The notes under the pieces: model-generated | The model's input: the letters and a program-made list of their open reading frames with translations, nothing else | What the model was told of the DNA's origin: nothing | The model's database searches: none | DNA from: an uncultured Cellvibrio sp. | GTDB lineage: Bacteria; Pseudomonadota; Gammaproteobacteria; Pseudomonadales; Cellvibrionaceae | Assembly: GCA_937958105.1 (NCBI GenBank) | Contig: CALFXJ010000038.1 | Location: 55,555-119,554, forward strand | DNA length: 64,000 nt | Direction of reading: 5' to 3' | Made by a program: the position numbers and the translations under genes | Shown: piece after piece, positions 28,885 to 64,000 of the stretch | Numbering within the stretch: the first letter of the stretch is position 1 | Layout of the letters: each line of letters starts with the position of its first letter

Positions 28885-28948
28885 AAAAATGCAGGAAAGC
28901 ATTTTTGCACGGCGAAGCCGCCCGCAGGGCGAGGCACAAGGATGTGCC
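28884..28948. other. Compact four-hairpin element at the cassette junction
   Basis: caaaaatgc/gcatttttg, cggc/gccg, gccc/gggc and ggcaca/tgtgcc in tandem. Confidence 0.7.
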
Positions 28949-29152: not shown

Positions 29153-30046
29153 TGACCAAGTAAGCTGTTTGGTAGTAAGCCATGTTTTGATGGTGGCTTC
29201 TTCGGTATCCTGTTTCTGATATGTGCCTTCGATGAATTTATAATGACGCACAACTTCTTTTTTGAGTTCAAATCCTTTTATGGGATCTTCCTGTAAACGA
29301 GATTCGTATCGTTTACGCCAAACCAAAATATCAAGCTCCTCATCTCCATCAAAATCATCAAAATAAACTTTTGCATAAGCTCGACGACCTACCCCACCAA
29401 TACGCCCCAACGCATCAGAAAGGTATTGCACTTTGCTGCCCGGAGGTGCCTCCACAGAATCTTGCAGGGCCAATCGGGCAGAAAATTCAATGGCAGCAGA
29501 CTGCGGAGAAAACAGTATCCAATCAAGTTGCTGGTCATTCTTTCCCATGTAAATAACCAAACTATCCTTGCCATTATTTTCCAAAGCACCATATCGCAAA
29601 GGCGTATTCGCCAAGCAACCTAATGAGCTCGTATTAAGTAAACGTTCATGAGCATATAAATGCCAAACATCACCCTCTGAGGCACCTTCCATGTCATAAA
29701 TAGACGCAACTTCTTTATCGATTAACTCGGTAGGCCAGCGAGTGAGGAGCCAGCCCGGATTAAACTGCTTTGTATTTACGTTAAAAAATACCACCCTACC
29801 GTCTGCCTTTAATGCATAGTATTCACCATCAATATCAGATTGAATAAAAGCTAGCGGTGACGAAGTATTTTCTGGGCAAGGATTATTCCATCCACAAAAA
29901 GACGCTGCATACGGCAAGCTTGTGGCTGCAAGATCCATAATGGTTTGGTCATTAACGCTGACTCCCTTTTCCAGTTGGATTTGGGAATATACCGATGAGC
30001 AGGACAAAAGAAAGCTTATTGAAAATATATACAATATTGATTTCAT
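29054..30046 (-). CDS. Exported partner protein, paralog 1 (putative immunity protein of the full-length effector)
   Basis: Signal peptide MKSILYIFSISFLLSCSSVYSQ; GGAG RBS right after the upstream stop; paralog of 25792-26841. Confidence 0.8.
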   Translation of the reverse strand: MKSILYIFSISFLLSCSSVYSQIQLEKGVSVNDQTIMDLAATSLPYAASFCGWNNPCPENTSSPLAFIQSDIDGEYYALKADGRVVFFNVNTKQFNPGWLLTRWPTELIDKEVASIYDMEGASEGDVWHLYAHERLLNTSSLGCLANTPLRYGALENNGKDSLVIYMGKNDQQLDWILFSPQSAAIEFSARLALQDSVEAPPGSKVQYLSDALGRIGGVGRRAYAKVYFDDFDGDEELDILVWRKRYESRLQEDPIKGFELKKEVVRHYKFIEGTYQKQDTEEATIKTWLTTKQLTWSKGYPSKSECPGQTDQLIPEMHDPLLNDPDVLQ

Positions 30047-30059: not shown

Positions 30060-33000
30060 TCATTGACAAGCTATTCTTCCGACAGCAGGATTAAGCATAC
30101 TTCCTATAGCAGCTGTCCGCACGTCGGCATATCTTCGCCCGGCCATCCACTCCTTCTCCCCATAGGCGAAACACCATTCAGGCTGCCCCGCATTGAGATG
30201 CGGCTGGCCGGTAACCGGGTCTGTCTGGGGATATCGAGCGCCCACCCAAATATAGGTAACAAATGGTAAATAACCACCGATATCTGCTTGAATCGTCCAA
30301 CTTTGTTGCTTGACACCTAGCCAGTAACCAAAATGGGTGGGGGAGAAATTGCCTGCCGGAGTGCGACGCGGCATACCTTGCAAAGCAGTAAAATATGAGT
30401 TGTTTCGTAGGTTGTTAGCATTGGCACCTTGATTATAAGCAATTACCGCTTTACCCAAGAGGTTGTAACCATCGTCGTGAGTGCTATTAAAAGCAATCCA
30501 GTTAGCTTGGTTACCGGCGCGAGAACATCGCGGACCGACCATATCGCCAGGTGCGGTTGTTTCATAACAGTATGACAGCGGAGTGTTTTGCTGAGGATGG
30601 GCAACCACATAATCAGGGGTAGTTTGGCCCTGTGTTGTGATGTAAGCGTTGTATAAACCTCGTGAGTATGTACAGGCACTGTCGGAAGCCGCAGCGAGAA
30701 ACGCCAGCGCACTGTTTACCGGGTGGTAAAGATTAATATTTTCCACGCCATTGGTCAGGAAACCTCGATTGGATTCACAACTGTTTTCCGCCCCGTACAT
30801 ACGTTTCCAAACAATGTGGTTATAACCCATACTACCCTCTTCATCTCCACCCCCTTCGTTAATACGGTAGGGGCTAGGTTGGTAATTGGAGATATTGTTA
30901 CCCCAGAAAATTGCACCATTACCAACCTCTTGGAGTATCCATGATTTGAATACTCCCTCACGAGCAATGCCTTGGGCAACTTGGGGGAACTCAGCGACGA
31001 TATCGTCATGGATTGCTTGCGTGTACGTTGCCTCTAATGTGTAGGTAGCAGGTAAATTACCCGAGTAAGGTATGTCGCCGCCCTGATCCGCTAACTGTTC
31101 GATATCCACCCAAAGACTTGCGGGAAGTTGCCGATAAGTAAACACAGGATGTGCTGCATACGTTTCCACAGCCCGAAAATAATGGGACCAAATCCGTTGC
31201 AAGCGTCTCAAGGTAACATTGTTCACAATACCGCTTACATCAGTTGTTGTATTAGTGCCTGCTAAATCGTTGATATTGACATTCCTGGCCTGAAACCGAC
31301 GAATCATACCCTCCAAAGAAACTTGTCCTACCAGACATTGGGCACCCCATCCGTAGTAATACATACCCCTATTGTCAGCAGGAGCTCCCTGACAATTTTG
31401 AGTCCAGTTACTTAACCCGCTGCCATTTCGAGAAGAGTTTATCCTCGCTCCCAAGTATCCTGAGTTGTAGTTTGGATTCGCTCCATACTGCGGACTAATC
31501 CCCAACTGCCACAACATCGCCTCCAGCATCGCCACATCACTGCCTTCCATCGGATCAGCCGGGTCTGGCCTCAGTTCGCGGGTCTTGATATGGAAAGTCT
31601 GCTCATAAGTGCGCGGAACACGGTTGCCTCCAGAGCTGGAGGGGATGGTGTAATGTGCTTTCAGGCTAGCTTCAACACCTGTATCAGCCGTTTGCGTACC
31701 CGCCCAGTTGGACCAGTCCACGTTCGTGGTACCTGCCATGGGTGGTGCAGGTTGGTCCGTCAGGGGTTCCCAATACACATCGGCGGTGTCACCGGGTGGG
31801 ATGTTGGTTTGTTTGTAAACTACACCCGCATCAACAACCGTGCACTGCCCTTGCGGATCATCAACCCCATAGCCCTGGCAGTAGCGGCCACGTTTGTTGA
31901 TGGTCCAGTCGACGTAGGTAATTTCTGTACCGGCAAGTGATGGCGGTATATAACGATAACGCAAGCGCATGCCACCCAAGGTACGTACTACCGGGTCCTG
32001 AACCGGCATAACACCGGAACCCGCTTCACCCGGCTCAAGCAGGCTCAGGATTTCAATATCCGTTTCCACAACCCCGTTGCGGGTTTCCGTGTTGCCCGGC
32101 ACCTGGTAATACACATGCAACCCGTTGCGGGTGAAGGCCCACTCCCACAATGTATTCCCAGCGTCGTGGTTGAGGTACAAACGGATCGTGAGCAGATCAG
32201 TCGGGTCGAGATAATCAAGTTGCTCAAGATTGTCAAAACGAATTTCGCCCGTGTCTGTCACGGTAACCTTGAGTTCATGAGCACCAAGACTCATCACCAG
32301 TTCCTGTTCGCCCTCAATAGCGGTAAGGCGTGGAACGGTTTGTTGTACCAACGAATAAAACACGGAGACCAGATCATCGTCGCTGCGAATGGTGGGGATC
32401 TTGCCGTCGATTAATTGTTCCGTCAGTAATTCCTGTTCGTGGGCTTGGCCGCTTTCATCGGTATACTCACGCAGGATGCTATCGATCTCCAATTGGAACT
32501 GACTGAACTGGTATTCAGGGCGGTAGGTCCAGCCGTAGCTGGGCAAGGGCTTGGTCGGTTCGGTATCAATGACTTCCGCATCGTAGGCTTTCCTGGCCTG
32601 ATTCCAGGCAGAGAAGACTTGCCATTCCTTATCTTCGTCGTGTAACGGCACAAGGAAGGGAGTCAGCACGCGGGGGCGGTACTGCATCATATCCGAGGCA
32701 GCCGCGCCCCCCATGTCAAAACTGGGATTTTCGTCCTTCGGGGTGCCGGATACGTGGATGTAATAGTGTTCCGGCACCGTCAGGTTACTCCTGACCTGCA
32801 GAACTTGCATATTACGCCCTGCGGCAATGGGAAAGTTGGACAGGTCATTGTCCGTCACTGCCTGAATAAGATTGGGCGTTACGATCTTGGCCAAACGTCC
32901 AGTTAGACCATATTGCTCGCCGTGGTCTACACTCAATCCTTCCGGCAAAGGACGGCCATCATGATCAAACCATTCGGTGTAGATGGTAATGCGATCATCC

Positions 33001-34964
33001 GATACCCGGCCTGCGCCTTCCGCGCCAATAATATTATTCCGGCTTTCCCGCTGACGGGTTAAGCCGTTGTCATGCGTATAATCGCGCTCCGCCCAGACTT
33101 TCAGGTTCGGCGGTCGCAGGACAATGTCTTTTACCGGCACATTTAAGTAGCCACCGGGATTTCGGCTGGCATCGCTTAGCTGAACACGTTGGGTATCCAT
33201 GTAGCCGGTAGCGCGATTAATAACAACCAGGCGTATCCACTCGCCGGGTTTCAAATGATCCGACTCCTGGCTTTGGAATGAAGCAGTTAGTTTATTGCGT
33301 GAGGCCCAGTCGTCCCAACTACCGGAACGATTTGTGCCACCTATATTGAGATTACCGTCGCGCGGGCCGCGCAGCATGACCCGGTAGAAGACGTTGTCAT
33401 CGCCCTGCCCCATCCCCACTTGAGCACGCCCGTCAATCTCCGCATCGCGCAATCCCCTCCGCTCCATCACCAACTGGCCGGTAGATTCACGGAATACGAG
33501 AATGTCCGTGTTTTTAAAATCATCTTCGCTGATGCTGCTGAGAAGACCGTTGCTTTTGAATGCATTGCTTCCTTCGCGTTTTTTTTCTCTGTCGGCTTGA
33601 CGTATAACATTTGGCTGGCCAGTTGTTCCTCTCGAACTAAAATAAACGCCTTGGACACTGCCTGCGGGATCAGCCTCAAATATCGTTTCCACACTTCCAT
33701 CCGGTTGTGGTTGTTGCACCAGTTTACCCAAGACAGCCGTGTCGGGCTTTCCATCACCATCAAAGTCATAAAACGCTTGCGCGACAGGCGTAACAGAAGA
33801 CGCCTGCACTACATACTCAGTCGTATCTCCAATCGGAATAGGCACAACCGAGCCAGGTGTTCCCCCCGGATTGCCAATCAATATACGCCCAGTCAGAAAC
33901 ATTACATCCACCCGCAAATCAATGGCGTAATTGGGTGTGGACATGGTGGCAAGTGAGGCTATCGTATTAGTGTAGGCCATGGCGCCGCCCAGGCTCATGT
34001 CATACATTGCAGCGCCGTTACAATAGCTCCAATCCTGCCGACGCAGATAGTAAGGCAACACCGGTGCACCATTTGGGCTGAAGTTGGTGTAATAAAGTTC
34101 CGCCCATACATCCGTAGTGTGTTCAAAACTGAAACCCGGGCATGGAGGCAAACGAAAATTAAGACGGTACTTTCCCTCTCTGTCGGTCACATCCACGCCG
34201 CCCGGATAAACCCATTCATCCACATACACTTTTACGAATGGAACTGGCCCAAAAATTTGGTCTTCAGATCCGCGTGTGTAGCCTCCATAAAAGTCCTGTG
34301 CCTCTTTGGGATCTCCGAAGAAGCCGGACCGGGGCGCAATATTAAGATGTGAAAAAGCTATAATTCGCCCCTGCTCGTTCATGACAAGACTGACAGCATC
34401 ATCCGGTGGTGATGGCTGCGTAAGGTCAACACTGAAGGACATTAATATCAGTTGATCCGGGGCTGTCGTCAGGCGGTTACTGCGCCCGCGGACCAGCACA
34501 CTCTTCTGATGCTCCAACAATCCTGGTTTGTCAATAGATTCGCCACTTACCGTTAAAAAGTTGGCTTGCTTGTATTGTTCCCCACTCAACAATTGCGCGT
34601 CTTGCGCCAGAGGATTGCTAGGACGCTCAGTAAACTCTTTCCATCGATTATATTCACTTGTGTATTCGTAGGCGCTGATGATTTGTAGACGGTCAACCTT
34701 GTCCGCATATTCCCCCAAAGCCACTTCACCAGCCTCGGATCCATCCTCGTTGTACTGAACAAGGATAGGTTGACCTTTCTCATCCAAGGCCATTGCACGG
34801 GCCATCACTGCACCGTGTTTATAAACCTGGTTCTGGTAATAAGCAATCGCAAAGACAGTGTGTGCAGATAGCGTCAATGCAACCGCAACAGCAAACCGGT
34901 AAACAGGCGGTATACATTCCTTAACTAACTTCATTTTCATGTGGTTATGGTTCCCTGACATCAT
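30060..34964 (-). CDS. Large Sec-exported modular protein: ~940-aa N-terminal stalk + C-terminal PG-binding/lytic-transglycosylase-like module (putative polymorphic muralytic effector)
   Basis: Signal peptide (RFAVAVALTLSAHTVFA); GSDVAMLEAMLWQLG...IRRFQARN...SGIVNNVTL (PG_binding_1-like); SWILQE / GSMGYNHI / IAYNQG (SLT-like motifs I-III). Confidence 0.75.
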   Translation of the reverse strand: MMSGNHNHMKMKLVKECIPPVYRFAVAVALTLSAHTVFAIAYYQNQVYKHGAVMARAMALDEKGQPILVQYNEDGSEAGEVALGEYADKVDRLQIISAYEYTSEYNRWKEFTERPSNPLAQDAQLLSGEQYKQANFLTVSGESIDKPGLLEHQKSVLVRGRSNRLTTAPDQLILMSFSVDLTQPSPPDDAVSLVMNEQGRIIAFSHLNIAPRSGFFGDPKEAQDFYGGYTRGSEDQIFGPVPFVKVYVDEWVYPGGVDVTDREGKYRLNFRLPPCPGFSFEHTTDVWAELYYTNFSPNGAPVLPYYLRRQDWSYCNGAAMYDMSLGGAMAYTNTIASLATMSTPNYAIDLRVDVMFLTGRILIGNPGGTPGSVVPIPIGDTTEYVVQASSVTPVAQAFYDFDGDGKPDTAVLGKLVQQPQPDGSVETIFEADPAGSVQGVYFSSRGTTGQPNVIRQADREKKREGSNAFKSNGLLSSISEDDFKNTDILVFRESTGQLVMERRGLRDAEIDGRAQVGMGQGDDNVFYRVMLRGPRDGNLNIGGTNRSGSWDDWASRNKLTASFQSQESDHLKPGEWIRLVVINRATGYMDTQRVQLSDASRNPGGYLNVPVKDIVLRPPNLKVWAERDYTHDNGLTRQRESRNNIIGAEGAGRVSDDRITIYTEWFDHDGRPLPEGLSVDHGEQYGLTGRLAKIVTPNLIQAVTDNDLSNFPIAAGRNMQVLQVRSNLTVPEHYYIHVSGTPKDENPSFDMGGAAASDMMQYRPRVLTPFLVPLHDEDKEWQVFSAWNQARKAYDAEVIDTEPTKPLPSYGWTYRPEYQFSQFQLEIDSILREYTDESGQAHEQELLTEQLIDGKIPTIRSDDDLVSVFYSLVQQTVPRLTAIEGEQELVMSLGAHELKVTVTDTGEIRFDNLEQLDYLDPTDLLTIRLYLNHDAGNTLWEWAFTRNGLHVYYQVPGNTETRNGVVETDIEILSLLEPGEAGSGVMPVQDPVVRTLGGMRLRYRYIPPSLAGTEITYVDWTINKRGRYCQGYGVDDPQGQCTVVDAGVVYKQTNIPPGDTADVYWEPLTDQPAPPMAGTTNVDWSNWAGTQTADTGVEASLKAHYTIPSSSGGNRVPRTYEQTFHIKTRELRPDPADPMEGSDVAMLEAMLWQLGISPQYGANPNYNSGYLGARINSSRNGSGLSNWTQNCQGAPADNRGMYYYGWGAQCLVGQVSLEGMIRRFQARNVNINDLAGTNTTTDVSGIVNNVTLRRLQRIWSHYFRAVETYAAHPVFTYRQLPASLWVDIEQLADQGGDIPYSGNLPATYTLEATYTQAIHDDIVAEFPQVAQGIAREGVFKSWILQEVGNGAIFWGNNISNYQPSPYRINEGGGDEEGSMGYNHIVWKRMYGAENSCESNRGFLTNGVENINLYHPVNSALAFLAAASDSACTYSRGLYNAYITTQGQTTPDYVVAHPQQNTPLSYCYETTAPGDMVGPRCSRAGNQANWIAFNSTHDDGYNLLGKAVIAYNQGANANNLRNNSYFTALQGMPRRTPAGNFSPTHFGYWLGVKQQSWTIQADIGGYLPFVTYIWVGARYPQTDPVTGQPHLNAGQPEWCFAYGEKEWMAGRRYADVRTAAIGSMLNPAVGRIACQ
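32047..32142. repeat. 96-bp homology anchor, copy 1 (internal to the effector gene)
   Basis: Encodes WAFTRNGLHVYYQVPGNTETRNGVVETDIEIL; 92/96 identical to 28789-28884. Confidence 0.95.
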
Positions 34965-37900
34965 TGCTGCAGTGCACTGCGCAATTGCTGTAACGTTTTT
35001 GTGCCGTCTACAACATCTTGTAGAAGCGGCTGCTGGGAAAGATCAACTAATGCATAGCCTATGTAATCCAGTGTATTGATCTGGACCTTTCCTACACTTA
35101 TTATCCTGTAGTTTTCGATCTGCCCGATACCAACTGGCTCGATAACTTCTCGATCCGGGTTGTAACCCAGCAACACAACATATTTTATTTCCGGAGAAAT
35201 GTAATCGTAGGTGCCGGCTAGCATCGGGACTTTAATGTCGATACTAATGGGATTTTCCACCGCAACTCCCCGCGGCTGGCCAGCGAACATCCACTGCGGC
35301 CAAGCACCGGGAGTTACAGCTGCATTAAGCTGGCTGTAAGGCATGAATTGCACCTGCAGATTGCCGGAGGTCCGGCCGTTTTTAAACAATAATCTGGCTC
35401 CGGTTAAATCCAGCCGTAATTCATCGCCTGCCAGGCTGACGAGCCCCTGATCGGCGCTGATTAACTGGAACGGGATATCAGGGTGAAGCTCTGGTAAGCG
35501 TGACAAGCTGATTTCATTCTTGCGTCCTTGTTGCAGGTTAATAGTTCGCACCTGTGTCCCGTATCCCGGCACGGCAAAATCGGGATTAATGATCAGCTCA
35601 TGACGGCCACCAGGAATTTCATTACCAGCAGCCTCTTGAAAGCCAAAGGCAAAGCTGCCGTCATTATTTGTCGTGGTGGTGCGATTAAGAGACGTCAGCT
35701 TTACCGGCACTCCTGATAACGGCTGGCCGAATTGATCAACTACACCACCGATAATAAAAGTAGGCAGCTGACGTATTTTGAAATTGAATCGACCCAGTTC
35801 GTTACCATCGTAGATTACATCTACATAAACATCTGCATTAAAGCCGAAATGACGATTCGCGTAATATGCAAAACTCTGGTTGCCAGGTAAAACAGACACT
35901 GCACCTGGGACTATCTCGTTGTCGCGGTGCACTTCCTGAAGCTGATAGCCCTGCGCGGTCAGGAAATCAGCACCGGATGGATCAAGATTCAAGTAGGTAT
36001 TACCATGCAGCGTTTCACTGACCGTTATCGTCAATTTGGAAGGATCGATCGCTTTATTGAAGTAAAGCTCAACAGGCTGGTTTGGCTCGCGGTTATTTGC
36101 GTTATTCTCGGGCGAGTAGCGTACCAGTTCCACCGGTATCGCTGTCTCATCAGTCACTCGTACCTGACGCGTCGTAGACGCAACGATTATATTCTGTGCG
36201 TTTAAGACTTGATAATTGAGCGTGTATGTACCAGCTTGTGGAGGAACTGTAACGTCTCCGCTGGCCAAGGTCCCAACAACGGTCAGCTCTGTTTGTTGAG
36301 TATTTACTACAACTACTACACGATGCCCTTCACCGATTTCCGTAAGTCGAGCTGCAGCCTGGACTTTTATGGGATCACCTCGCCCCAGAAGCTCGGCATT
36401 TTCACCAGGCAATAACGGTGTAATCGAGGCTTGTGCTGTGGATTGAAAAATATATGCCACACTGGTCCGGTTGCCACTTATGTCGTACGCATTAAAGACC
36501 AATTGGGCTTGTGCGCCCGCGGCTAAAGATACAGGCAGGGTGAAGTCGTATTGGCCGACGCTTGCTCCCGGGCGTAATACCAGGGGCTGGTCATTAACAG
36601 TGATGCTGGACAGATTGTCATCACTTACTGTGCCATTTACAACGAAGGGTGATTGGATAACATTGTTAACTGCAGGGCTGGGCTGCAGGCTTGCATCAAG
36701 TATTAGCCGTGGCGGTGTACCGTCACGATGATACTGCGCAACAAGCCTGGAGGTCTTACCAAGTGCATCGCGAGCTTCAACCGTCACATCGACAGTGTCT
36801 ATGCCTTCAGGAAACGAAATTACCTGTTCGAAATAATAATCCTGCAAATTACCGGCTGGGGCAGAAACCGCCATACCATTTACTGTCACCTCAGCGAAAC
36901 CCGCGTGACTAATGACTCGCCCTTTGAAGCGAAAACTGCTATCGCGCAACTGGCTGCCATTAGCAGGCGCGACTATCGAGAGCCTAGGCTCCTCAATAGC
37001 ATCCGGATCTTCCGGTGTGTAGGTAATCGTCAATGTTTGAGAGTCTGCACCAGCAAGCGACTCAACCCGCAGAACAAATACATTCTGTCCTTGTTGCAGG
37101 CGAATATCTGGCAAAGCGAAAGCATATAAGCCTTCCTGACCGGTACCATCCGGGGTTATCTGCCATTCGTTAATGTAAAAACGTATAGCATCCAGAGCTA
37201 ACAGGGTCTCCACCTGGCCCTTGATAGTCACGGTTTCTTCGGATATTACCGCACCATTAGCAGGGGAAATATTTACGAGACGCGGCGGGGAACTACGTTG
37301 CACCTGATGAGTAGCCTGAGTCATATTGCCAGAAAAATCCGCTGCCACCACTGTCAGCAGATTCATCCCGACCGCCAGCGGTACTTCCGCCATAAACTGA
37401 TTCGCTGTAATTGTTGCTGTAACAGCTGATGCAGGAAACCGGTCCGAGGTTACAGTCACGCTTTGAATACCGCTGTATGGCTGAGCCGGATCAGATACAG
37501 ACCCTCGCAATACAACTGTGGGGGATTGCACCATTTCATCGGGGGTATTGGATATTTGCAGTAATGGAGCAACACGATCCGGGTAATCGTTAACATCGTC
37601 AGGATTGGTCCCTGCTTGAAGTTCTTCTTCATTGGAAAAGCCGTCACCATCACGATCCGGGTCGCTGTTATCACCGATACCATCACCATCCATATCAGAT
37701 GATTCATTGGGATCATCCGGGAATGCATCTTCATCATCAGGAATACCGTCGCCATCACGATCGGGTTTTGAATATTTGATATTCAACGATTGGCTAACAC
37801 TACCATCCGGTGAAGTTGCTTCTAACGTTAATACGTTATTTCCTTCCTGCAGCATCACCAAGAAAGAGAATAAATAAGCCCCAGCGGTGCCAGACAGGGG

Positions 37901-40111
37901 ACGCAGTGTATCGTCAAGATAAAGCTGTACATCATCTAACGACCAGGCAGTTATGACTTCACCAGTGACTGTAACAGTCGGAGCTGACACTTCAGAGCCA
38001 TCAAACGGTCCGCTAACGATTAATTGAGGAAGTGATATTCTGTGAACAAGAATAGAATCTACCGTTATGTTGCCGGAAAAATCTCGTGCCTCAACTTGAA
38101 TAAGGTTGCCCCCCAGCACCAGCGGGACACTTGCAGAGAAAGTTTGCTCATTGAGCGCAGCCGTAATCTGGTGGCCTTGTGTAGTGGACAGGACTACCGA
38201 TGCGATACCGCTATTTTCCTGTACCGGATCAATAACATTGCCTGTGATGAGGATTTCGCCAGCATCTATTGGCGTATCCGGCTGGTCAATCTGTAACTGC
38301 GGGGGAGTCAGATCTGGAGCAGGAGAAGTTCCTTGGCAGAGTTCACCAAAGTCAGCTAGTGAGACTGCGTTTGGCGTATAGGTCACATGACTGTCACTAT
38401 CTAAGGTAATTCCTTTGCCGTTCACTGCACCAAAGATCTGGGTTTGATAGTTCAACCTTACTTGACCACGACTATAAACCAGGGCGTGAGCGCTGCTGCT
38501 AGTATGAAATTCAATATCACCATAGCCATAGATAATGAGTTTGGCCGAATCCTCGGTGTTGCCATTAAGTTGAGCAGACCATGGAATATATAAGGGGTCC
38601 CTGATAAATAATCGCGCCGTTCCATTACCCACTACCTCTATCCTGGTGTCTGCTTCAAGTGCTAGACGCTCGATCCAATAATCCCCGGCGGGCAATCTTA
38701 GAGTGCTGCCGTAGCCTACATTCATTTCGCGAATCAGGTACGCATCAGGTTGAGCGGTAAAGTTTACTGTTGCATCAGCGGCAAGTGTGACCTGTCCGTG
38801 CTCCAGCTCATCGCTACCATTAATCGTGAATATGGATGACCAAGGCACCATTATCGTATTAGTTGCCAGTGTTGACTTAAAATCTCCCGCAGTTAATGTT
38901 TGGCTGGGAACGCCTGTCGCAACGCATTGAGTATCCTCACAGCTCTGAGCCGATCCACCCATAGTAATCACATCAACTGCTGATAACTGATGTGATGAGC
39001 CGCTGCGTAACTGCGCATTCTGCTGAAAGCTTATGGTTCCCACGTCGCCATGAGCCTGGAGTCCATTACCGAATGCCGCACGACATATGTTTCCAACAGG
39101 AGGTGGTGAGCTGCCCACAGGTGGCTCCTGGCTCCCATCACCACCTGTTCCTCCACAAAATGTGGATAATTCAGTCTGAGCAAGCGATCCGACGTCTGCA
39201 TAAATTTTTCCGGAGGAGCCAAGATTAGCCTGATGAAAACTGGCAACGCCGTAGAGCTTGGCTTGCGCGATACTAAGCCTGTTTTTACTGTAGCTCACCG
39301 CAGATACTTCAGAACCCGCCTGAAGGGTCAGATCTCCGTGGGTATAGATAAATAGTTTGCTGGCATTATCCGGGCTGCCTGCCGATGTCATGTTTGCATA
39401 GGACTGCCAGGGAAATGTTAGTCCGTTCTTAACGTAGAGCTGGGCAGTTCCCTCACCTACCACGTTGATTCGGCTCCCTGTGGCCAATGTCAGATTATCA
39501 ACCCAATAAATACCTGGCGATAAATTTAACGTAGCTGCATAACCAAGATTTAATTGATTGATATGGTATGAAGTTGTAATGGGTGAAAAAGTTAAAACTC
39601 CTTCTCCATTAACAGTAACGGATCGAAATTGATTATATTGATGCGTGCCTAAGGTAGCACTGCCTTGATAGACCACCTGGTAGTCAACACTACTGGTGTT
39701 TTCTGGAAAATCTATGTTAACAGCCTCAGCGTGTTGCGCAGAGGCACTGCAGCGGCGTGTACCACAACTGGGCAAAACGGACCAAGCAGAGTCATTGACG
39801 CGTGCCACCATTAATGATTCTTCTGCGGCATCCAACAGCTGTGCGTTCCAATCAAAACTGATTTCACCATCCGGCTGATGGCTCTGAACAGCCACGGGAA
39901 AAATGCTTTCACATGGTAGAGATGCTCCGAATACCGGGCTGCAAAGCGTTAGAAAAACCCATCCCATCAATTCAGAAATGCCCTTTTTCCTGGCATTGCT
40001 AAATGACCATCCCTCGAGAGCCGAGTCCTGTCTATTTAAATAATTTTCCATACGACCCTGTCTCATGTAGCCCAAGAGAGACCCTGCTCTCGCTGATAGT
40101 AAAGAACCCAT
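34961..40111 (-). CDS. Large exported Ig-like/TSP3-repeat protein with a duplicated N-terminal domain
   Basis: Repeated Ig-like units (PPQLQIDQP, PRLVNISPANG, PRLSIVAPANG); Ca-binding DxDxDG repeats at about 37580-37770; SbsA-Ig-like ELVRYSPENN; carboxypeptidase-regulatory-like GGVVDQFGQPLSGV. Overlaps the next gene (ATGA). True start uncertain. Confidence 0.8.
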   Translation of the reverse strand: MGSLLSARAGSLLGYMRQGRMENYLNRQDSALEGWSFSNARKKGISELMGWVFLTLCSPVFGASLPCESIFPVAVQSHQPDGEISFDWNAQLLDAAEESLMVARVNDSAWSVLPSCGTRRCSASAQHAEAVNIDFPENTSSVDYQVVYQGSATLGTHQYNQFRSVTVNGEGVLTFSPITTSYHINQLNLGYAATLNLSPGIYWVDNLTLATGSRINVVGEGTAQLYVKNGLTFPWQSYANMTSAGSPDNASKLFIYTHGDLTLQAGSEVSAVSYSKNRLSIAQAKLYGVASFHQANLGSSGKIYADVGSLAQTELSTFCGGTGGDGSQEPPVGSSPPPVGNICRAAFGNGLQAHGDVGTISFQQNAQLRSGSSHQLSAVDVITMGGSAQSCEDTQCVATGVPSQTLTAGDFKSTLATNTIMVPWSSIFTINGSDELEHGQVTLAADATVNFTAQPDAYLIREMNVGYGSTLRLPAGDYWIERLALEADTRIEVVGNGTARLFIRDPLYIPWSAQLNGNTEDSAKLIIYGYGDIEFHTSSSAHALVYSRGQVRLNYQTQIFGAVNGKGITLDSDSHVTYTPNAVSLADFGELCQGTSPAPDLTPPQLQIDQPDTPIDAGEILITGNVIDPVQENSGIASVVLSTTQGHQITAALNEQTFSASVPLVLGGNLIQVEARDFSGNITVDSILVHRISLPQLIVSGPFDGSEVSAPTVTVTGEVITAWSLDDVQLYLDDTLRPLSGTAGAYLFSFLVMLQEGNNVLTLEATSPDGSVSQSLNIKYSKPDRDGDGIPDDEDAFPDDPNESSDMDGDGIGDNSDPDRDGDGFSNEEELQAGTNPDDVNDYPDRVAPLLQISNTPDEMVQSPTVVLRGSVSDPAQPYSGIQSVTVTSDRFPASAVTATITANQFMAEVPLAVGMNLLTVVAADFSGNMTQATHQVQRSSPPRLVNISPANGAVISEETVTIKGQVETLLALDAIRFYINEWQITPDGTGQEGLYAFALPDIRLQQGQNVFVLRVESLAGADSQTLTITYTPEDPDAIEEPRLSIVAPANGSQLRDSSFRFKGRVISHAGFAEVTVNGMAVSAPAGNLQDYYFEQVISFPEGIDTVDVTVEARDALGKTSRLVAQYHRDGTPPRLILDASLQPSPAVNNVIQSPFVVNGTVSDDNLSSITVNDQPLVLRPGASVGQYDFTLPVSLAAGAQAQLVFNAYDISGNRTSVAYIFQSTAQASITPLLPGENAELLGRGDPIKVQAAARLTEIGEGHRVVVVVNTQQTELTVVGTLASGDVTVPPQAGTYTLNYQVLNAQNIIVASTTRQVRVTDETAIPVELVRYSPENNANNREPNQPVELYFNKAIDPSKLTITVSETLHGNTYLNLDPSGADFLTAQGYQLQEVHRDNEIVPGAVSVLPGNQSFAYYANRHFGFNADVYVDVIYDGNELGRFNFKIRQLPTFIIGGVVDQFGQPLSGVPVKLTSLNRTTTTNNDGSFAFGFQEAAGNEIPGGRHELIINPDFAVPGYGTQVRTINLQQGRKNEISLSRLPELHPDIPFQLISADQGLVSLAGDELRLDLTGARLLFKNGRTSGNLQVQFMPYSQLNAAVTPGAWPQWMFAGQPRGVAVENPISIDIKVPMLAGTYDYISPEIKYVVLLGYNPDREVIEPVGIGQIENYRIISVGKVQINTLDYIGYALVDLSQQPLLQDVVDGTKTLQQLRSALQQ

Positions 40112-40120
40112 GTGAAAAAC

Positions 40121-41020
40121 TTAGTCAGCTTGAGAGATGATCTCAACCTGAACCTTTTCTCGCGCCTCTTGTGAAGCATTCTTAACAGCCTCGCGTAGCA
40201 TTATCGGAGCCAAACGCTGGCGAATATCCCCGCTCACCTCAGCTAAAGATTTAGGAGGGGTTTTGACGAGATTGGTTACTCGTACCAGGTGTAATTGTCC
40301 ATCAATATAAAAAACATTGGACGTATTGCCTTTATCAAGGGCATTAACTTGCTGCTCTAAGACCTTATTCAACAGGCCTTCTGTGACCCTTGCCTTTTGA
40401 TGCCTGAGCCCCCACCGCTCATCCCACTTTGCAGCAGAAGACGACCAGTTGGTGGTTTGTCTTATTTCTGGAATGCTCCCCAGCAGATCATCTCGCATAG
40501 CATCTGAAATATTGGCTGGCGCAACCAACATTTCATAATCACGGATATCTACCGAACCAAACTCCTCCGGGTGCTTCTCATAATATTCATTAATCATCTC
40601 GGGCGTGACGGGCGTTGGTGTTACATGAGCCTGAAGATATTCTTTTACATACAGCTCTTCCTGATAAACTCGAGTCAGATTTGCAATTTTCTGAAGCTGA
40701 TCTTCAGAAAGCTCCTGCAGAGCCAGCTGCTTCATAGCGCGACTCGCGATCAGGCTATCAAGTACTTTTTGACGGAGGCTTTCATCGAAATTGAACATGT
40801 CTGCCTGGCTGAACGTGCGCTCTATAGAGAATAGCAGGTCATCTTCAGTAATCTCTTCACCGTTAACCTTGGCCAGGACCAGAGAGGATTGGGCTGTATC
40901 CTGCCCCTCCTGCTTCTGGTCACAACCAGTCAACCCGATACTCAAGAAAATGAGCAGAGCTGATATTCGAGGCATAGTCACCCGAGAGACTTCGGTGGGG
41001 ATTTTCCTGTACAACAACAT
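40121..41020 (-). CDS. Lipoprotein SurA/PrsA-like chaperone with a degenerate parvulin domain
   Basis: Lipobox LTGC; LAKVNGEEITEDDL; LAEVSGDIRQRL; lacks the HIL and GGDLG motifs. The start may be 40975. Confidence 0.75.
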   Translation of the reverse strand: MLLYRKIPTEVSRVTMPRISALLIFLSIGLTGCDQKQEGQDTAQSSLVLAKVNGEEITEDDLLFSIERTFSQADMFNFDESLRQKVLDSLIASRAMKQLALQELSEDQLQKIANLTRVYQEELYVKEYLQAHVTPTPVTPEMINEYYEKHPEEFGSVDIRDYEMLVAPANISDAMRDDLLGSIPEIRQTTNWSSSAAKWDERWGLRHQKARVTEGLLNKVLEQQVNALDKGNTSNVFYIDGQLHLVRVTNLVKTPPKSLAEVSGDIRQRLAPIMLREAVKNASQEAREKVQVEIISQAD

Positions 41021-41023
41021 AAA

Positions 41024-41839
41024 TTAATCCTTTCGGCTCACTTTGATCGTTTTCAAAAGGCGTTCAGTCTCGACAATCTTGGTTTCGTTACGTAACTGAT
41101 AACGAATATCACCTTCAACAGCATCCAAAGGACGCGTTACTTTTTGCGGGCCCTCTACTGCCTTAATCACATGAAAGCCAAAAGGGGTCAAAAATGGCTC
41201 AGATACATCACCGGGCTTCATGGAGAACAATCTTTCAGAAAACTCAGGATCAACAGACCCTTCGGCCAGCCATCCAAGATCTCCGCCCTTCTTTGCTGAT
41301 ACCGTATCTTCTGAATAAATTTTCGCTACATCTGTAAATTCTTCGCCTTTTTGAATGCGGCTGTAAGCCTCATGTGCTGTACTGAGTTTCGCCTGCCGCT
41401 CTGTTTCGCTCATTTTTGAATCGACGCGGACAAGTATGTGTGCAACGTGCATCCGCTGAGTCTCATAATCAGCCATGTTATTAGTGTAAAAATTCCGCAC
41501 AGCGTCATCGTCCACTGATTTTTTGAGATGCTCCTCAAAATAGCGTCCAATCAGCATTTGTCGACGAAACTCTTCCAGCTCGGCACCAATTAAGTCGGCA
41601 TCAAGCTTTTCTGTCTTCTCTATTGCTGCCGCTAACGCAGCTCGCTGTACGTATTCGTCCAATGCTCTATCAACACGAGCCTTGTCTTGCTCGGGAACAC
41701 GTTTGAATTTTAAATACGCATCAAACTCCGCTTGGGTGATATCGCGTCCATTTACGGTCGCAATAGTGCCTGAATCACTGCATCCTGACAGAGCCAGAAA
41801 AGCGCAAAAACATAATGTTGAAACTTTTACTGCATTCAT
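41024..41839 (-). CDS. Lipoprotein parvulin (PpiC-type) peptidyl-prolyl isomerase/foldase
   Basis: Lipobox LSGC; IATVNGRDIT; HVAHILV; SAKKGGDLGW; TPFGFHVIK. Confidence 0.92.
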   Translation of the reverse strand: MNAVKVSTLCFCAFLALSGCSDSGTIATVNGRDITQAEFDAYLKFKRVPEQDKARVDRALDEYVQRAALAAAIEKTEKLDADLIGAELEEFRRQMLIGRYFEEHLKKSVDDDAVRNFYTNNMADYETQRMHVAHILVRVDSKMSETERQAKLSTAHEAYSRIQKGEEFTDVAKIYSEDTVSAKKGGDLGWLAEGSVDPEFSERLFSMKPGDVSEPFLTPFGFHVIKAVEGPQKVTRPLDAVEGDIRYQLRNETKIVETERLLKTIKVSRKD

Positions 41840-41883
41840 GATTTATCACCTTATTCAATCTGCATATCTAAATAAAAATACTG

Positions 41884-59800: not shown

Positions 59801-62800
59801 GCAATCCCTGAAGGATTATCGAATCGATTGATTAACTGAGGAGCATAAACATTCTGTATATCGTAGAAGTAAATAACAGGTTTCGTTTCATTAACCATCA
59901 AGGCTAAATAGCGATCACTGATAGCTGCAGCAATAATCGAGCTTGTCATCGCACCGCGCGACAGCAGCAAGGGGACCTGACTTTCCATTGTTCCGTAAAG
60001 AGCCCAGTTAGCTGCCCCACTGGAATATGCACCAACAGTTAAGAGCAAATCTCCGTGACGTTTGAAGGTAATGACATCGGCAAGCTGTTCGCTAGCGCCT
60101 AGTTCAATGTATATATCGGTGTTATCAAATCCATCTACAGTAGTATCAAGATTACTTACAGTGATGGTTAACCGGCCGAGGGTATTGTCAGGAACTCGGA
60201 AGCTGATTACATCAGGATCTTCCATGCGTAGACCAAGCGGGGCTTTGTCATTGACATAAACACGTGTAGCTGCACTGAACCCACGGCCCTGAATAGCGAT
60301 CGTATCGCCTGAGTTGAATAGATACCGATGAGCATTTGTATCTATTGTGCCTGACAGGGAATTGAATTTACCGATACGGTCGATTACTGGATCGGCAACA
60401 TAGGTGAAGGCAGCATGCCGGCTGTGGCTCAGCTGACCGTTCACGACTTTTAAACCGACAACATAATTGTCATTTGGCGACGCGGCTAATGCTGGCAAGC
60501 GGAAGCGCATCTCCTGATCACTTACTACTTCTATATTCTCAATCGCAACATCACCGATCTCCACTTGCGAATAACTGGAGAAATTCTCACCGTATATTCT
60601 TACGTATTCTCCGCCACGCCAACTTGCAAAACGAGGCTGAACGTCGGCTATCTCTGGCTGCCTATACGTGGATGCAACAAAACGGAAGCTATAATCAGAA
60701 CCCAGCGATTTGCCATGGAGATCACGTATCGCTCCAGCTACAGTGACGCGGTAGCGGCGGCCATCAATTAAAGGGGCAACAGGGCGGAAAACGATTTTAG
60801 ATCCAATATTATTAACTTGAGAGCTGATATTTCCAGCAATTTTTGCACCATCCAGAACAACGGTTAACAGCTCATCTTTGTTTGCTTGAAGCTGTTCCCC
60901 ATCCAACAATCGATTAAATTGAATCTCAATCGCAACATCAGATGGTATTGTTGATTCAGCATCTGGAGTGTGGCTGACAATTACCAACTGATCATTAACG
61001 ATGGTATTTAACCGACCGCCGATGTGATTGATACTGCTGGCGTCTTCAACGGGGTTCTCAATAGGCAGATCATTCAGGTAAGCAAACGTAGAGCCTGCAT
61101 AAAGCGCCCGAGAGTGGAACGCCACGTTCACAACATCGCCTATAACAGAGAAATAGTTTTTCAGTGTTATGGGTGCCTTATAGCGACCCTCCATCCATGG
61201 GGAAATGTCGTAAAGTTGCAGATCCCCCTGTCCTGCTGCTACATAGAGAGTTTGTCCCTGCAAGATCATTTGACCTGCATAGATGTCGCCATTGCGAACG
61301 AGATAAGCCAGATTAAGTGATGCTACTGGCGTAGCTCCGCCACTGCTGTTCTCTTGATATAGAACAACTGAGCCGGCAGTTCCGCTGGAAACAAGAATTA
61401 GGTTATTTTTTACCAGAATATTCCTGGGTTTAAATCGATTGCCACCCTCGTCAATTGTCTCAAAGTCACGAACAATGCGGTATTCCCCTGACATTAACTC
61501 AACTTCCACGATGCGACGTGAATCAGTCAACGAAATCCACAGGCTGTCACCGACCACATCGATAGCATGCGGCGTAGCTTTCAAGAGCAAACGATCAATG
61601 ACTGCCAGTCTGCGCAGTTCCCTTCGATCTGTCAGTTGATAGATCGAAACGCCATCAACACTTGATACATACAAAAGCCCATCACGTGCGACCAGATCGC
61701 GAACCTGTCCTGCCAATGTAACTTCATTGATCAGTAAAGGATCTGCGGCCAGAGTAATATCGAAATGATAGAGACGATCTGAACCGACGGCGAACAGATC
61801 ATTATTCATAGCCTCCAGAGCGACAAATCCTTGCGCTCCCAGACCACCAGTTACATCAAAATGGTAGGGTCTCGTTACGTTAGAGAATTCCTTTTCCAAG
61901 ATAACCGGGCGCACAGGGTCAGAAACATCTGCCGCAATCAATCGAGCCACATTAGAGCGTAATCGTTTAGCTAATCGCCCTTCTCGATTAATAACCTCAT
62001 ACTCTCCACCGGTAACTGTATAAAGGATTTGATCACGTAAGAGCACCGCAGAAATAGGGCTTGGCTTATCTGAAGCAAGATCTACCGACCCGGTTTCCCG
62101 GCCAGCATAGAAGTAATCGATTGGAGATACCGCAGATTCGCCTGCGAACTGGAGGCTCTCAATCTTAATTTGTGCATATCCAAACGGATTTGCAGGCGCT
62201 CTCACCTGGATATGGTTGCCACTGATGACGCGCAAATCACCCGCCACTTTGCCGCCTATGGTGACTCTCATACCGTGGTTGAAACCGCGGCCATAGATAT
62301 CAATAACATTTCCGCCTTGTGGAGGACCACGCAATGGATTTGCATCCTCGATCACTACGCGAGGTAAAACGACAATAGCTCCATGTTTGATATACGAAAG
62401 ATCACCTTTCGTAATGCGTACCGGTAATGCGGCCACATTGCTGCTCAGGAAGAGCTTGGGAACCTTGATTTCTATTTCACCATCGGATACTGATGTAATA
62501 GCAGCAGGTGGAACAACTGTTTCGCCAATAGATAGCTGTATCGCCCCAGAATCGCTGCCAAATCCTATTCCCTTAATAACCGCATGCTCGCTACCGTCCC
62601 CGTGGAAGTAATGGCCGCCGACACTTGTATCAGTTTTACGCACTACATCTGTTATTAAAGGGTTAATGCCATCACCCAAGTCATAGACTGCACCAGCCGG
62701 AGCAATTAATGCCTCGCCTGTAACCGCCCTTAGATCTTGAGTAACTACTACCTGCAATTTGTTACCGGGGATATTCTGACCATTGAGTTTTACATCGATA

Positions 62801-64000: not shown

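Follow-up and report, generated by a model that had tools for sequence, protein, structure and literature searches.

We describe here an apparently horizontally acquired, putative operon of about 52.7 kb in an uncultured Cellvibrio sp., which we read as a conserved, hitherto undescribed gammaproteobacterial module centered on a polymorphic toxin/immunity pair and featuring a new delivery scaffold. We hold this composite reading with evenly balanced confidence. The DNA analyzed, hereinafter the window, is a stretch of 64,000 nt (contig CALFXJ010000038.1, positions 55,555-119,554), and coordinates are given in the numbering of the window. An earlier sequence-only reading of the same DNA had proposed one apparatus with lipoprotein PPIases and a candidate role in contact-dependent antagonism or predation. 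A conserved module, the lipoprotein PPIases and a role of the effector gene in antagonism are supported by our analysis; a wall-lytic activity of the effector is not.

The genes of the module lie on the minus strand in the order: the giant gene, PPIase1, PPIase2, the gene for a 1,716-aa protein, the gene for the 1,634-aa effector and the gene for a partner protein (ORF list). From the ORF coordinates the successive intergenic gaps are 44, 3, 9, -4 and 14 nt, practically as previously given (44, 3, 9, -4 and about 13 bp); the fourth gap is an ATGA overlap, 4 nt long, between the genes for the 1,716-aa protein and the effector. It had also been stated that no terminator precedes position 28994, and indeed the first credible one in our scan is an intrinsic terminator at 29025-28994 (minus strand), after the partner gene, which is likely to mark the end of the operon. 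Only one other strong minus-strand terminator was detected, a second copy at 25732-25763 that follows an orphan partner gene and closes a duplicated 3.26-kb cassette: the two have near-identical 14-bp stems and T-runs. All remaining terminator-like matches have stems of 5-8 bp and are as frequent as in shuffled sequences (17 found versus 16.4 expected); promoter-like matches are fewer than expected (20 versus 25). No riboswitch or other RNA was recovered from 24.5-42.5 kb or from the DNA that precedes the giant gene. We read these genes as a probable single operon, of which tight spacing would by itself be no proof. The sequence-only reading had likewise posited a coupled unit, of at least 35 kb; the close spacing stands and the unit is larger, because the giant gene extends beyond the window to 81681, bringing it to about 52.7 kb.

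Only the last 7,371 codons of the giant gene, for its C-terminal part, fall within the window (41884-64000, minus strand). The whole gene, which is complete in the contig, spans 41884-81681 (97438-137235 of the contig) and encodes a protein of 13,265 aa with an N-terminal Sec signal peptide. Pfam searches recovered LVIVD, Big_5, TIG, Big_7 and TSP3 domains and RCC1-like propellers in it, and agree with the domain calls made earlier for the giant, the two PPIases and the 1,716-aa protein. Two regions can be distinguished: a conserved colinear core comprising residues 1 to ~10,800, and a distal region in which RCC1-like propellers (residues ~10,900-13,100) lead into a PPC-like module and then a tail rich in Gly and Tyr. 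Over the ~10,800 residues of the core the giant is colinear with three distant orthologues of 12,002-14,300 aa from the Pseudomonas group, Shewanella and Thalassolituus; the C-terminus is hypervariable and unrelated between lineages. Its N-terminus is present in 11 of the 12 genomes probed, ten of which contain giant frames of 10,940-14,300 aa and the eleventh a frame of 4,438 aa. Internal repetition is low, the sequence being almost non-repetitive, and the giant is among the longest colinearly conserved, non-repetitive bacterial proteins known to us.

Downstream of the giant gene are two genes for predicted lipoproteins with PrsA/SurA-like features, namely a Rotamase domain combined with a lipoprotein signal. 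PPIase1 (41024-41839, minus strand; 271 aa, lipobox LSGC) is of the parvulin type, with Rotamase/Rotamase_3 matches in Pfam at E about 1e-27 (Rotamase 4e-27) and PrsA/SurA-like matches in NCBIfam with scores below the cut-offs; its lipobox is kept in most of 38 orthologues. PPIase2 (40121-41020, minus strand; 299 aa, lipobox LTGC) combines a SurA_N domain with a divergent Rotamase_2 domain (1e-12, Pfam) and shows weak similarity to the EpsD family in NCBIfam; both its position and its lipobox are conserved in orthologues. The earlier call of two lipoprotein PPIases thus appears sound. Sorting of the two to the inner or outer membrane was considered from the residue after the lipid-modified cysteine, and set aside as this residue is not conserved.

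The exported 1,716-aa protein (34961-40111, minus strand) displays two DUF7305 domains, Big_7, calcium-binding TSP3 repeats, four Glucodextran_B-like domains and a CarboxypepD_reg-like domain (Pfam); a phmmer search with it yielded nothing meaningful. The DUF7305 region at its N-terminus is distantly related to the DUF6701/MshQ-like proteins (E 1e-7 to 1e-28), a relationship that, along with the type II secretion linkage in relatives described below, goes beyond the sequence-only reading. This invites comparison with the MshQ/PilY1 class, the more so as the module is in some relatives embedded among genes for type II secretion (the T2SS), a type IV filament machine. MshQ is predicted to engage minor pilins via its C-terminal DUF6701 part (bioRxiv 10.64898/2026.02.14.705861). 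In contrast, a Pfam search of the 1,716-aa protein detected no DUF6701 and the locus contains no pilin genes, such that neither the C-terminus nor the placement after minor pilins that characterize MshQ-like filament tips is seen here.

The 1,634-aa effector (30060-34964, minus strand) is sharply divided in two. Its N-domain (aa 1-944; 32133-34964) comprises a signal peptide and a conserved all-β-sandwich array of ~900 aa that is always N-terminal, while the tip (aa 945-1634; 30060-32132) is the variable part. The N-domain is closed by a boundary motif, RLYxNxDAGNxLWExAF (aa 923-944, about 32133-32198), in which D923..N937, L939, W940 and F944 are invariant, and in 60 of 61 loci the homology seen by tBLASTn stops within aa 942-945. 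The family is large: 119 homologues and, at E<=1e-30, at least 504 clusters. Neither the effector nor the partner, nor their orphan paralogues, found a match in Pfam, NCBIfam or PADLOC. An AlphaFold2 (AF2) model of the N-domain (pLDDT 86.5) has no global fold match in Foldseek (TM at most 0.12). Its matches to GhpA and alpha-2-macroglobulin were rejected, as they reflect generic β-sandwich arrays; a β-barrel akin to that of inverse autotransporters, considered because Big_1/invasin_D3 domains follow in many members, was likewise rejected, as the model contains only soluble β-sandwiches. That this domain is conserved and invariably N-terminal implies a role in partner-binding or trafficking.

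The N-domain is followed by no fewer than 23 unrelated kinds of C-terminus (120 proteins fall into 26 C-terminal clusters), including Rhs, the M15 peptidase Peptidase_M15_3, a DUF900 hydrolase and a phosphodiesterase; an Rhs shell occurs in at least two family members. The commonest class, about 1,200 aa in length with Big_1/invasin_D3/LamG domains, is adhesin-like and has no recognizable toxin domain. Downstream of 77 of 83 effectors, at -60 to +200 nt and most often with a 4- or 1-nt overlap, is an ORF on the same strand, and the clusters of these partners nest within the tip clusters: tip and partner co-vary. In the Cellvibrio operon this position is occupied by a putative immunity protein of 330 aa (29054-30045, minus strand, ATG at 30045), assigned from its sequence and its co-occurrence with the tip: its family occurs only alongside the SLT-like tip (10/10 loci). 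All its homologues bear signal peptides of the ordinary type I, and its own lipobox is probably incidental.

Beyond the operon terminator is an orphan tip (26838-28883, minus strand), a paralogue of effector aa 942-1634 (BLASTP E 1e-88) that lacks the N-domain and any evident promoter; its homology to the effector begins exactly at WAFTRNGLHVYYQ. An orphan partner follows (25792-26841, minus strand; BLASTP E 3e-64), whose ATG (26841-26839) overlaps the orphan-tip stop as ATGA and whose C-terminal 55 residues hardly differ from those of the first partner. The junctions are repeated at the DNA level, upstream at 28768-28884 versus 32026-32142 (91% identity) and downstream at 25718-25984 versus 28980-29246 (82% identity). 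Given this 82-91% identity between the flanks of the orphan and operon copies, exchange of the tip by recombination would be possible. Orphan tip/partner cassettes are common in the effector family, and arrays of SLT-like tips and partners with orphans are seen in C. japonicus, Marinimicrobium, Bermanella and Reinekea. Absent from the sequence-only reading were the whole extent of the giant gene, the orphan cassette and the exchangeable tip of the 1,634-aa protein. The anatomy of the family, namely a sharp N/C boundary, a co-varying downstream gene and orphan cassettes with junction homology, is that of polymorphic toxins. Accordingly, the 1,634-aa family and its partners are best read as a polymorphic toxin/immunity system, which would support a role of the effector gene in antagonism, as suggested earlier for the apparatus.

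What the Cellvibrio tip does is the weakest step of this explanation. From an alignment of 15 tips and an AF2 model we divide it into a pair of Ig-like sandwiches, a motif block resembling PG_binding_1 and a helical domain with SLT-like motifs. Family 1 lytic transglycosylases (SLT, GH23) are characterized by the motifs ES, GLMQ and AYNxG; the tip has E1346, GSMGYNHI and AYNQG, and the SLT-like strings conserved in the 15-tip alignment are E405, GSxG[FY]NQ and YNxG. Nevertheless, the label of a muralytic effector was drawn from motifs that Pfam, PDB profile, hhalign and Foldseek searches do not confirm. No tip matched the Pfam SLT model even at E<=5; an SLT HMM scan of the genome matched six other genes and neither tip copy; and in hhalign the tip aligned with an SLT alignment built from the genus only at AYNxG (P = 0.004, not significant). 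In the motif block GSDVAMLE..LG...RRFQ resembles PG_binding_1 (PF01471). One of the 15 tips matches this model, weakly (E = 0.068); hhalign against a genus alignment was not significant (P = 0.009-0.07); and neither tip copy is among the matches listed for PF01471 in the genome and 12 relatives. Profile searching of the PDB with the aligned tips gave nothing meaningful, and Foldseek with the AF2 model (pLDDT 68) matched only the Ig-like part, e.g. to PAD N-domains. The tip would probably attack the cell envelope, possibly peptidoglycan.

This absence of a verified enzymatic fold in the Cellvibrio tip is consistent with another reading, namely that of an adhesion or biofilm-matrix operon with no part in antagonism: a surface fiber built from the giant, the 1,716-aa protein and the 1,634-aa family would carry exchangeable binding or substrate-processing heads (lectin-like, or wall- or polymer-modifying), with the partner acting as a dedicated chaperone or inhibitor that holds the head inactive until export. 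The adhesin-typical domains of the commonest tip class, the richness of the giant and 1,716-aa proteins in Ig-like, TIG, TSP3 and propeller domains, the resemblance of the 1,716-aa N-terminus to the pilus-associated MshQ, and the glycosyltransferase genes that accompany the module in three lineages all fit such a fiber. However, the same N-domain also bears Rhs-cage, M15 peptidase, DUF900 hydrolase and phosphodiesterase tips; promoterless spare cassettes and strict tip-partner co-variation are hallmarks of toxin/immunity systems not known for adhesin heads; and all partners have export signals, as periplasmic immunity proteins would. We therefore consider an adhesion operon unlikely.

The module itself is conserved. 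We counted synteny in 44 related loci with enough flanking sequence, from more than ten gammaproteobacterial families: in 37 of these the effector gene is directly preceded by one like that of the 1,716-aa protein, and in 36 the PPIase1 gene (ppi1) is upstream, such that the order PPIase-PPIase-1,716-aa-effector is kept in 36-37/44. In 36 of 38 loci ppi1 is preceded, at a distance below 400 nt, by the end of a long frame that is open at its 5' end. Loss of synteny elsewhere had been named in advance as grounds for abandoning the module; instead, order, strand and very short gaps persist in 84% of loci at only 28-55% protein identity.

This bears on the view that we are dealing with two independent things co-inherited on an island, a giant surface cassette and a free-standing, bacteriocin-like polymorphic toxin released by Sec and the T2SS, with the effector needing none of the upstream genes. 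Five of the 44 genomes have the effector family with no detectable giant N-terminus, some genomes have extra effector copies and orphans at a great distance from the PPIase genes, and neither sequence similarity nor a known docking domain was found to connect the effector with either large protein, the giant or that of 1,716 aa. Against this, the conservation of order across such divergent families goes far beyond passive co-inheritance, and both the 4-nt overlap of the 1,716-aa and effector genes and the role implied for the 900-aa N-domain speak for a link between the effector and its neighbors. Independence of the two parts appears quite improbable to us.

The GC content of the island is 0.47-0.49 versus 0.54 for the genome, and it adjoins tRNA-Leu/Cys. 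The N-domain occurs in only two of 40 relatives and two of 400 sampled members of the class. An att-like repeat of the tRNA end was not seen by eye at the far island border and no integrase was found; on balance, the module looks to have been horizontally acquired as a genomic island. That it targets eukaryotic hosts or prey (in symbiosis, grazing defense, or algal or animal attachment), the variable ends of giant and effector tracking host surfaces, strikes us as very unlikely: the eukaryote-like RCC1, TSP3, LamG and IPT/TIG domains, the hypervariable giant C-terminus and the presence of the module in the animal-associated Thiodiazotropha, Endozoicomonas and Endobugula would agree with it, but the M15 peptidoglycan peptidase tips and the exported self-protection partners point to the bacterial envelope and the carriers are mostly free-living marine or soil bacteria.

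For export, the clues come from gene neighborhoods. In Ectopseudomonas oleovorans gspD and gspC are divergently upstream of the module and gspE-M downstream; in Metapseudomonas otitidis the module is likewise embedded in gspDC/gspE-M, with the secretin placed in the same way. In nine Pseudomonas-type loci gspE/F/G follow the module, and gsp genes adjoin it in Neptuniibacter. In the Cellvibrio genome no secretion genes flank the module, its only T2SS being on another contig, and no secretin is near the giant gene in eight of 11 other genomes checked. A Shewanella secretin 15 kb upstream of the giant was rejected as a further T2SS linkage: it is PilQ of pilMNOPQ-aroKB. The giant, the effector and the partners have signal peptides, and genomic linkage in relatives suggests a possible dependence of the module proteins on the T2SS.

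Returning to a delivery module for a polymorphic toxin, its parts might work as follows. The large proteins would be exported by Sec, because each has a signal peptide; the membrane-anchored PPIases would chaperone or fold these very large β-rich proteins in the periplasm; and exit would be via type II secretion, by a dedicated, adjacent system in the Pseudomonas group and Neptuniibacter and by the general T2SS in the Cellvibrio genome. The giant, with its 10,800-residue core and lineage-specific distal end, might then form a cell-surface scaffold with the 1,716-aa protein, on which the effector N-domain would dock to place the toxic tip on or in neighboring bacteria, the exported partner protecting the producer's own periplasm. 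To our knowledge a substrate of 1.4 MDa would far exceed any cargo known for type II secretion, and this counts against the proposal. We suggest only tentatively, as a possibility on the doubtful side, that these systems represent an unrecognized class of interbacterial toxin delivery: an ~11,000-residue scaffold with a lineage-specific targeting end, folded by dedicated lipoprotein PPIases, exported by the T2SS and joined by an MshQ-like adaptor, which carries exchangeable effectors via their 900-aa N-domain. If true, there would be contact-dependent inhibition that relies on none of the type IV, V, VI and VII secretion routes, and type II secretion could handle megadalton cargo.

As in the sequence-only reading, we can assign the module to no named system: this agrees with the Pfam, NCBIfam and PADLOC results, and literature searches (by locus tags, DUF7305, and the combination of giant, T2SS and polymorphic toxin) found no description of it. 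Nonetheless, it shares traits with several. In anatomy there are parallels with CDI (CdiB/CdiA/CdiI, type Vb): an exported protein of very large size; a conserved body, short boundary motif and variable toxic C-terminus; an immunity gene directly downstream; and promoterless orphan cassettes with flank homology permitting tip exchange. In contrast to CDI, the locus and its flanks have no CdiB/Omp85, TPS domain, FHA repeats or VENN motif (Pfam), the variable tip is on a separate 1,634-aa protein rather than the giant, two PPIases and an MshQ-like protein are added, and in relatives the module is linked to type II secretion. Neisseria reportedly has the MafB/MafI polymorphic toxins with the lipoprotein MafA encoded upstream, which Jamet et al. 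are said to have described in 2015. The Cellvibrio module is like these in the Sec signal peptide of the toxin, a conserved N-domain with no assigned role in trafficking, C-terminal toxins that vary, immunity genes, orphan cassettes, an upstream lipoprotein gene and an unknown route across the outer membrane. It differs in lacking DUF1020, in its unannotated N-domain of ~900 aa of β-sandwiches and in being about ten times larger, with a 13,265-aa protein. Polymorphic C-terminal toxins, immunity genes and orphans are likewise shared with the Rhs/YD-repeat toxins; unlike those delivered by the T6SS, the Cellvibrio effector has no Rhs repeats or PAAR and no T6SS genes neighbor it.

The giant, for its part, recalls the type I-secreted adhesins LapA, SiiE and MpIBP, which also run to thousands of residues with Ig-like and calcium-binding modules and, like it, are presumed to be cell-surface fibers. 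However, it has a Sec signal instead of a C-terminal T1SS signal, no RTX repeats (Pfam) and no ABC/MFP/TolC genes nearby, and is almost non-repetitive and colinear over 10,800 residues between families, whereas those adhesins are repeat-expanded. Giant surface proteins are reportedly used in predation, namely the Aureispira grappling hook GhpA and the products of the Omnitrophota giant genes. The idea of a very long surface protein coupled to envelope attack on other bacteria is common to these and the Cellvibrio module, as an analogy only: there is no homology (the Foldseek match to GhpA has probability 0.07 and TM 0.05), and the phyla and secretion routes differ.

Polymorphic toxins are a main currency of bacterial competition, and each known class is tied to a defined export machine (T5, T6, T7 and others). 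Here an effector family of more than 500 sequence clusters, with no Pfam or NCBIfam model, is tied to a different and much larger gene set. Even on a minimal reading, toxin/immunity discovery would gain a new trafficking domain, the motif at its boundary, and a catalog of tips and partners. Should the parts act jointly, they would constitute a new delivery route for competition toxins and bring into question both the cargo-size limit of the T2SS and the reason for dedicated periplasmic PPIases. A tractable model would then be at hand in Cellvibrio japonicus Ueda107, a non-pathogen amenable to genetics, whose module has four tip/partner pairs.

The cluster is characterized by a run of minus-strand genes on contig C38 (the window being C38:55555-119554 of a 3.96-Mb genome in 63 contigs). 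The first encodes a giant protein, whose frame runs from 41884 to beyond 64000 in the window and is complete on the contig at window 41884-81681: it is 13,265 aa long, stop-free and headed by an N-terminal Sec-type signal peptide. There follow genes for two lipoprotein PPIases, ppi1 (271 aa, 41024-41839) and ppi2 (299 aa, 40121-41020), a 1,716-aa protein (34961-40111), a 1,634-aa effector (30060-34964) and its partner, a putative immunity protein of about 330 aa (29054-30045, ATG at 30045). The spacing is 44, 3, 9, -4 and 14 nt, in agreement with the gaps reported by the sequence-only reading. Beyond these lie, on the same strand, an orphan copy of the effector's C-terminal tip (a 711-aa frame, 26838-28973) and an orphan partner (25792-26841). 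A terminator scan found just two strong minus-strand terminators, at 29025-28994 and 25763-25732, which are near-identical 14-bp hairpins followed by T-runs; the remaining terminator-like and promoter-like matches do not exceed shuffle expectation. For the putative coupled unit proposed in the sequence-only reading, the gene run and spacing stand, but not the extent: since the giant frame is complete at 81681, the co-directional unit covers about 52.7 kb rather than 35 kb.

The effector has no match in Pfam, NCBIfam or PADLOC, and neither its N-domain (aa 1-944) nor its tip (aa 945-1634) is covered by a curated family model. A search with aa 40-945 recovered 119 proteins of 944-2,834 aa in total length, from Cellvibrio japonicus (CJA_2502, CJA_2509), Neptuniibacter, Colwellia, Corallincola, Microbulbifer, Pseudomonas-group genera and Saccharophagus, among others. 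Their C-terminal domains differ and include Big_1/invasin_D3/LamG, Peptidase_M15_3, DUF900, Rhs, phosphodiesterase and PAD, with Rhs, DUF900 and M15 re-confirmed; the C-termini of 120 family members fall into 26 clusters. The N-domain homology, in turn, ends at residue 942-945 in 60 of 61 genomic loci, its end being marked by the conserved motif RLYxNxDAGNxLWExAF. A profile of the N-domain matched 504 clusters among 1.84 billion representatives (E<=1e-30), and in the best 150 of the matches listed it starts at the N-terminus or close to it, proteins cut off by a contig end being allowed for. Its AlphaFold model (51 sequences; pLDDT 86.5, pTM 0.86) predicts a beta-sandwich array with a few helices, and with neither a barrel nor a membrane segment. 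Foldseek returned no global match for it (TM at most 0.12); kinship with complement/alpha-2-macroglobulin and with the Aureispira grappling-hook base was rejected, the matches being to generic sandwich arrays. There is no sequence similarity between the N-domain and either the giant or the 1,716-aa protein. As the N-domain is soluble, conserved and always N-terminal, a putative role in trafficking or docking fits. One rival reading is an adhesion fibre with exchangeable heads.

A same-strand ORF follows 77 of the 83 complete effector genes, most often with an overlap of 4 or 1 nt. The partner clusters are nested within the tip clusters, the window's tip type and partner type occur together in all ten of ten loci, and all partners bear signal peptides. 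The C-terminal 690 residues of the window's effector are duplicated in the 711-aa orphan frame, the match beginning exactly at WAFTRNGLHVYYQ (aa 942); in the DNA, tip and partner form a tandem 3.26-kb cassette with junctions that are 91% and 82% identical and a diverged middle. The orphan tip sits behind a terminator, lacks an N-domain and still overlaps its own partner by ATGA. Judged from their sequence, the flanks of this cassette are recombination-competent. Tips and partners of the window's type are often arranged in arrays with orphans: C. japonicus has four pairs and Marinimicrobium three partner genes. In C. japonicus Ueda107 (CP000934 2875136-2900106), a 1,959-aa DUF7305 protein is followed by the four pairs, two with full-length effectors and two orphans, and one IS element with a SymE-like gene lies in between; this strain offers a ready model organism for the module. 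Effector and partner have every sequence-level attribute of a polymorphic toxin/immunity system, with the toxicity itself putative. The effector end follows the same logic as the CDI, Rhs and MafB systems, but a search for the features that define these families found them to be absent at the locus.

The sequence-only reading had called the effector muralytic. An alignment of 15 tips displays two Ig-like sandwiches, a PG_binding_1-like block (GSDVAMLE..LG...RRFQ) and a helical domain with a conserved glutamate (E1346 in the window's effector) and the motifs GSxG[FY]NQ and YNxG, which recall the ES/GLMQ/AYNxG signature of family 1 lytic transglycosylases; the likeness is confined to these motifs. 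None of the 15 tips matches Pfam SLT at E<=5, one of the 15 matches PG_binding_1 (E = 0.068), a PDB profile search with the tip gave nothing, and an SLT HMM run on this genome matched six other genes and neither tip copy. Comparison by hhalign gave P = 0.004 against SLT, with only AYNxG aligned, and P = 0.009-0.07 against PG_binding_1, the Ig-like part as control reaching about 0.5; the AF2 model (pLDDT 68) has structural matches to the Ig-like part only. Since no statistical method confirms the motifs, muralytic activity is a plausible but unproven guess. The export of the partner and the occurrence of M15 peptidase tips in other family members indirectly favour the envelope as predicted target.

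The claim of two lipoprotein foldases is borne out at the family level, given that both proteins have domains of parvulin-type PPIases (Rotamase, E 4e-27, in ppi1; SurA_N and a divergent Rotamase_2 in ppi2) and a lipobox, which most of the 38 orthologues of each retain. The 1,716-aa protein comprises two DUF7305 modules and four Glucodextran_B-like domains, along with Big_7, TSP3 and a CarboxypepD_reg-like domain. The DUF7305 region has distant relatives (E 1e-7 to 1e-28) among the DUF6701 proteins, in Aeromonas and elsewhere, that make up the MshQ family of the MSHA type IV pilus; in a recent preprint (bioRxiv 10.64898/2026.02.14.705861), MshQ is modelled as a tip protein resembling PilY1. 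The DUF6701 part of MshQ is, however, absent from the 1,716-aa protein, and hence we treat the relationship as a lead and not as membership. This genome has a further DUF7305-containing frame on the short contig C23 (about 2889-4109), which shares about 30% identity with aa 343-748 of the 1,716-aa protein.

The giant protein combines LVIVD, Big_5, IPT/TIG, Big_7, DUF4625 and TSP3 domains with seven RCC1-like stretches at residues of about 10,900-13,100, and ends in a PPC-like module and a Gly/Tyr-rich tail in which no known sorting signal was found. Outside the RCC1 zone it has almost no repeats, which sets it apart from classical giant adhesins. With residues 1-400 as query, a single gene was recovered in 11 of 12 other genomes; the frames span 10,940-14,300 aa in ten of these and 4,438 aa in the eleventh, Ectopseudomonas oleovorans. 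Compared at full length with its orthologues in Metapseudomonas otitidis (14,300 aa), Shewanella nanhaiensis (12,510 aa) and Thalassolituus (12,002 aa), the giant is colinear from residue 1 to about 10,800, with chunk-by-chunk identities of 20-49% and positional offsets mostly below about 160 residues. Past residue 10,800 the lineages are unrelated over the C-terminal 1.2-3.6 thousand residues. In the giant, therefore, the core is fixed while the distal end varies.

Synteny was assessed in 74 loci (one genome per species, 10-kb flanks) scanned with the window's proteins, with upstream counts restricted to the 44 having at least 9 kb upstream. A 1,716-like gene lies directly upstream of the effector on the same strand in 37 of the 44, and ppi1 is also present in 36, with ppi2 between and the order kept. 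A frame still open at the locus edge precedes ppi1 in 36 of 38 loci, its end being less than 400 nt away. Seven loci have no such upstream genes; the giant is found elsewhere in two of these genomes and in none of the other five. The sequence-only reading had named loss of synteny as the refuting outcome: as co-occurrence and gene order persist across loci, the module is not refuted. A second rival reading is that of two unrelated neighbours sharing one island.

No secretion genes were found on the contig beyond 64000, where the sequence-only reading had advised looking, and this genome has a single T2SS, which lies on contig C4. In E. oleovorans, a full T2SS surrounds the module: gspC and gspD are divergent just upstream of the giant, and gspE-F-G-H-I-J-K-L-M come after the effector/partner genes. 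A secretin is similarly placed in M. otitidis, gspE/F/G follow the module in nine Pseudomonas-type loci, and gspF-M adjoin it in Neptuniibacter. Eight of the 11 genomes checked, in contrast, have no secretin near the module; a Shewanella secretin considered as a T2SS linkage was rejected, being PilQ. The linkage to type II secretion is therefore recurrent, in two lineages, and not universal, and export of the module proteins through the T2SS is a tentative proposal that we hold at somewhat short of even chances. An S26 (type I) signal peptidase paralogue adjoins the module in 16 loci (e.g. 18247-18882 of comparison locus L021) and may act as the module's dedicated signal peptidase; no such gene lies near the module in this genome.

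In the mechanism we propose, Sec would export all the large proteins, the two PPIases would handle them in the periplasm, and they would then pass through the T2SS; the giant and the MshQ-like 1,716-aa protein would assemble a surface scaffold on which the effector would dock via its N-domain, its tip acting on a neighbour's envelope and the partner protecting the producer itself. At the sequence level its basis is the conserved module, the exchangeable tip, the co-varying exported partner, the orphan cassette, the signal peptides and the lipoprotein PPIases. A function directed at eukaryotes is a further rival reading. The sequence-only reading recognized no named system with this gene set, and the upstream genes indeed match no described secretion or delivery system in the literature searched. 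We file the cluster as a putative polymorphic toxin system whose accessory module is novel and very large; the stronger reading, a new class of delivery machine, seems to us rather unlikely.

The 5' side of the giant has a 340-bp spacer, followed by genes for a GT1/GT28-like glycosyltransferase, a GT2 glycosyltransferase and an NAD-dependent epimerase (window about 82021-85085; 276-3340 of locus L002). A GT1-like homologue adjoins the module in Neptuniibacter and Corallincola as well, and this linkage may indicate that the large proteins are glycosylated. Past the epimerase lie tRNA-Leu(taa), tRNA-Cys(gca) and the housekeeping genes pgsA-uvrC-response regulator-murB-kdsB-lpxK-comEC. From about 24.8 to about 85 kb the GC content is 0.46-0.53, mostly 0.47-0.49, as against about 0.54 for most contigs, and the effector family occurs in just two of 40 relatives and two of 400 genomes sampled evenly across the class. 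Low GC, sparse presence among relatives and tRNA neighbours together mark the region as an accessory island beside tRNA genes; neither an integrase nor an att repeat was found for it. Outside the island, beyond 24.7 kb on the downstream side, the genes for a sulfatase, a multihaem cytochrome with TPR/HEAT repeats and a histidine kinase (17400-24708) have a GC of 0.60-0.63, much higher than the mean of the genome (0.54). A plus-strand frame of 160 aa with no Pfam match (25075-25557), flanked by the orphan cassette and the sulfatase gene, sits where GC changes abruptly from about 0.63 to about 0.50. At the other edge, a minus-strand frame of about 95 aa containing cysteines (L002 about 3390-3690) lies between tRNA-Leu and the epimerase gene.
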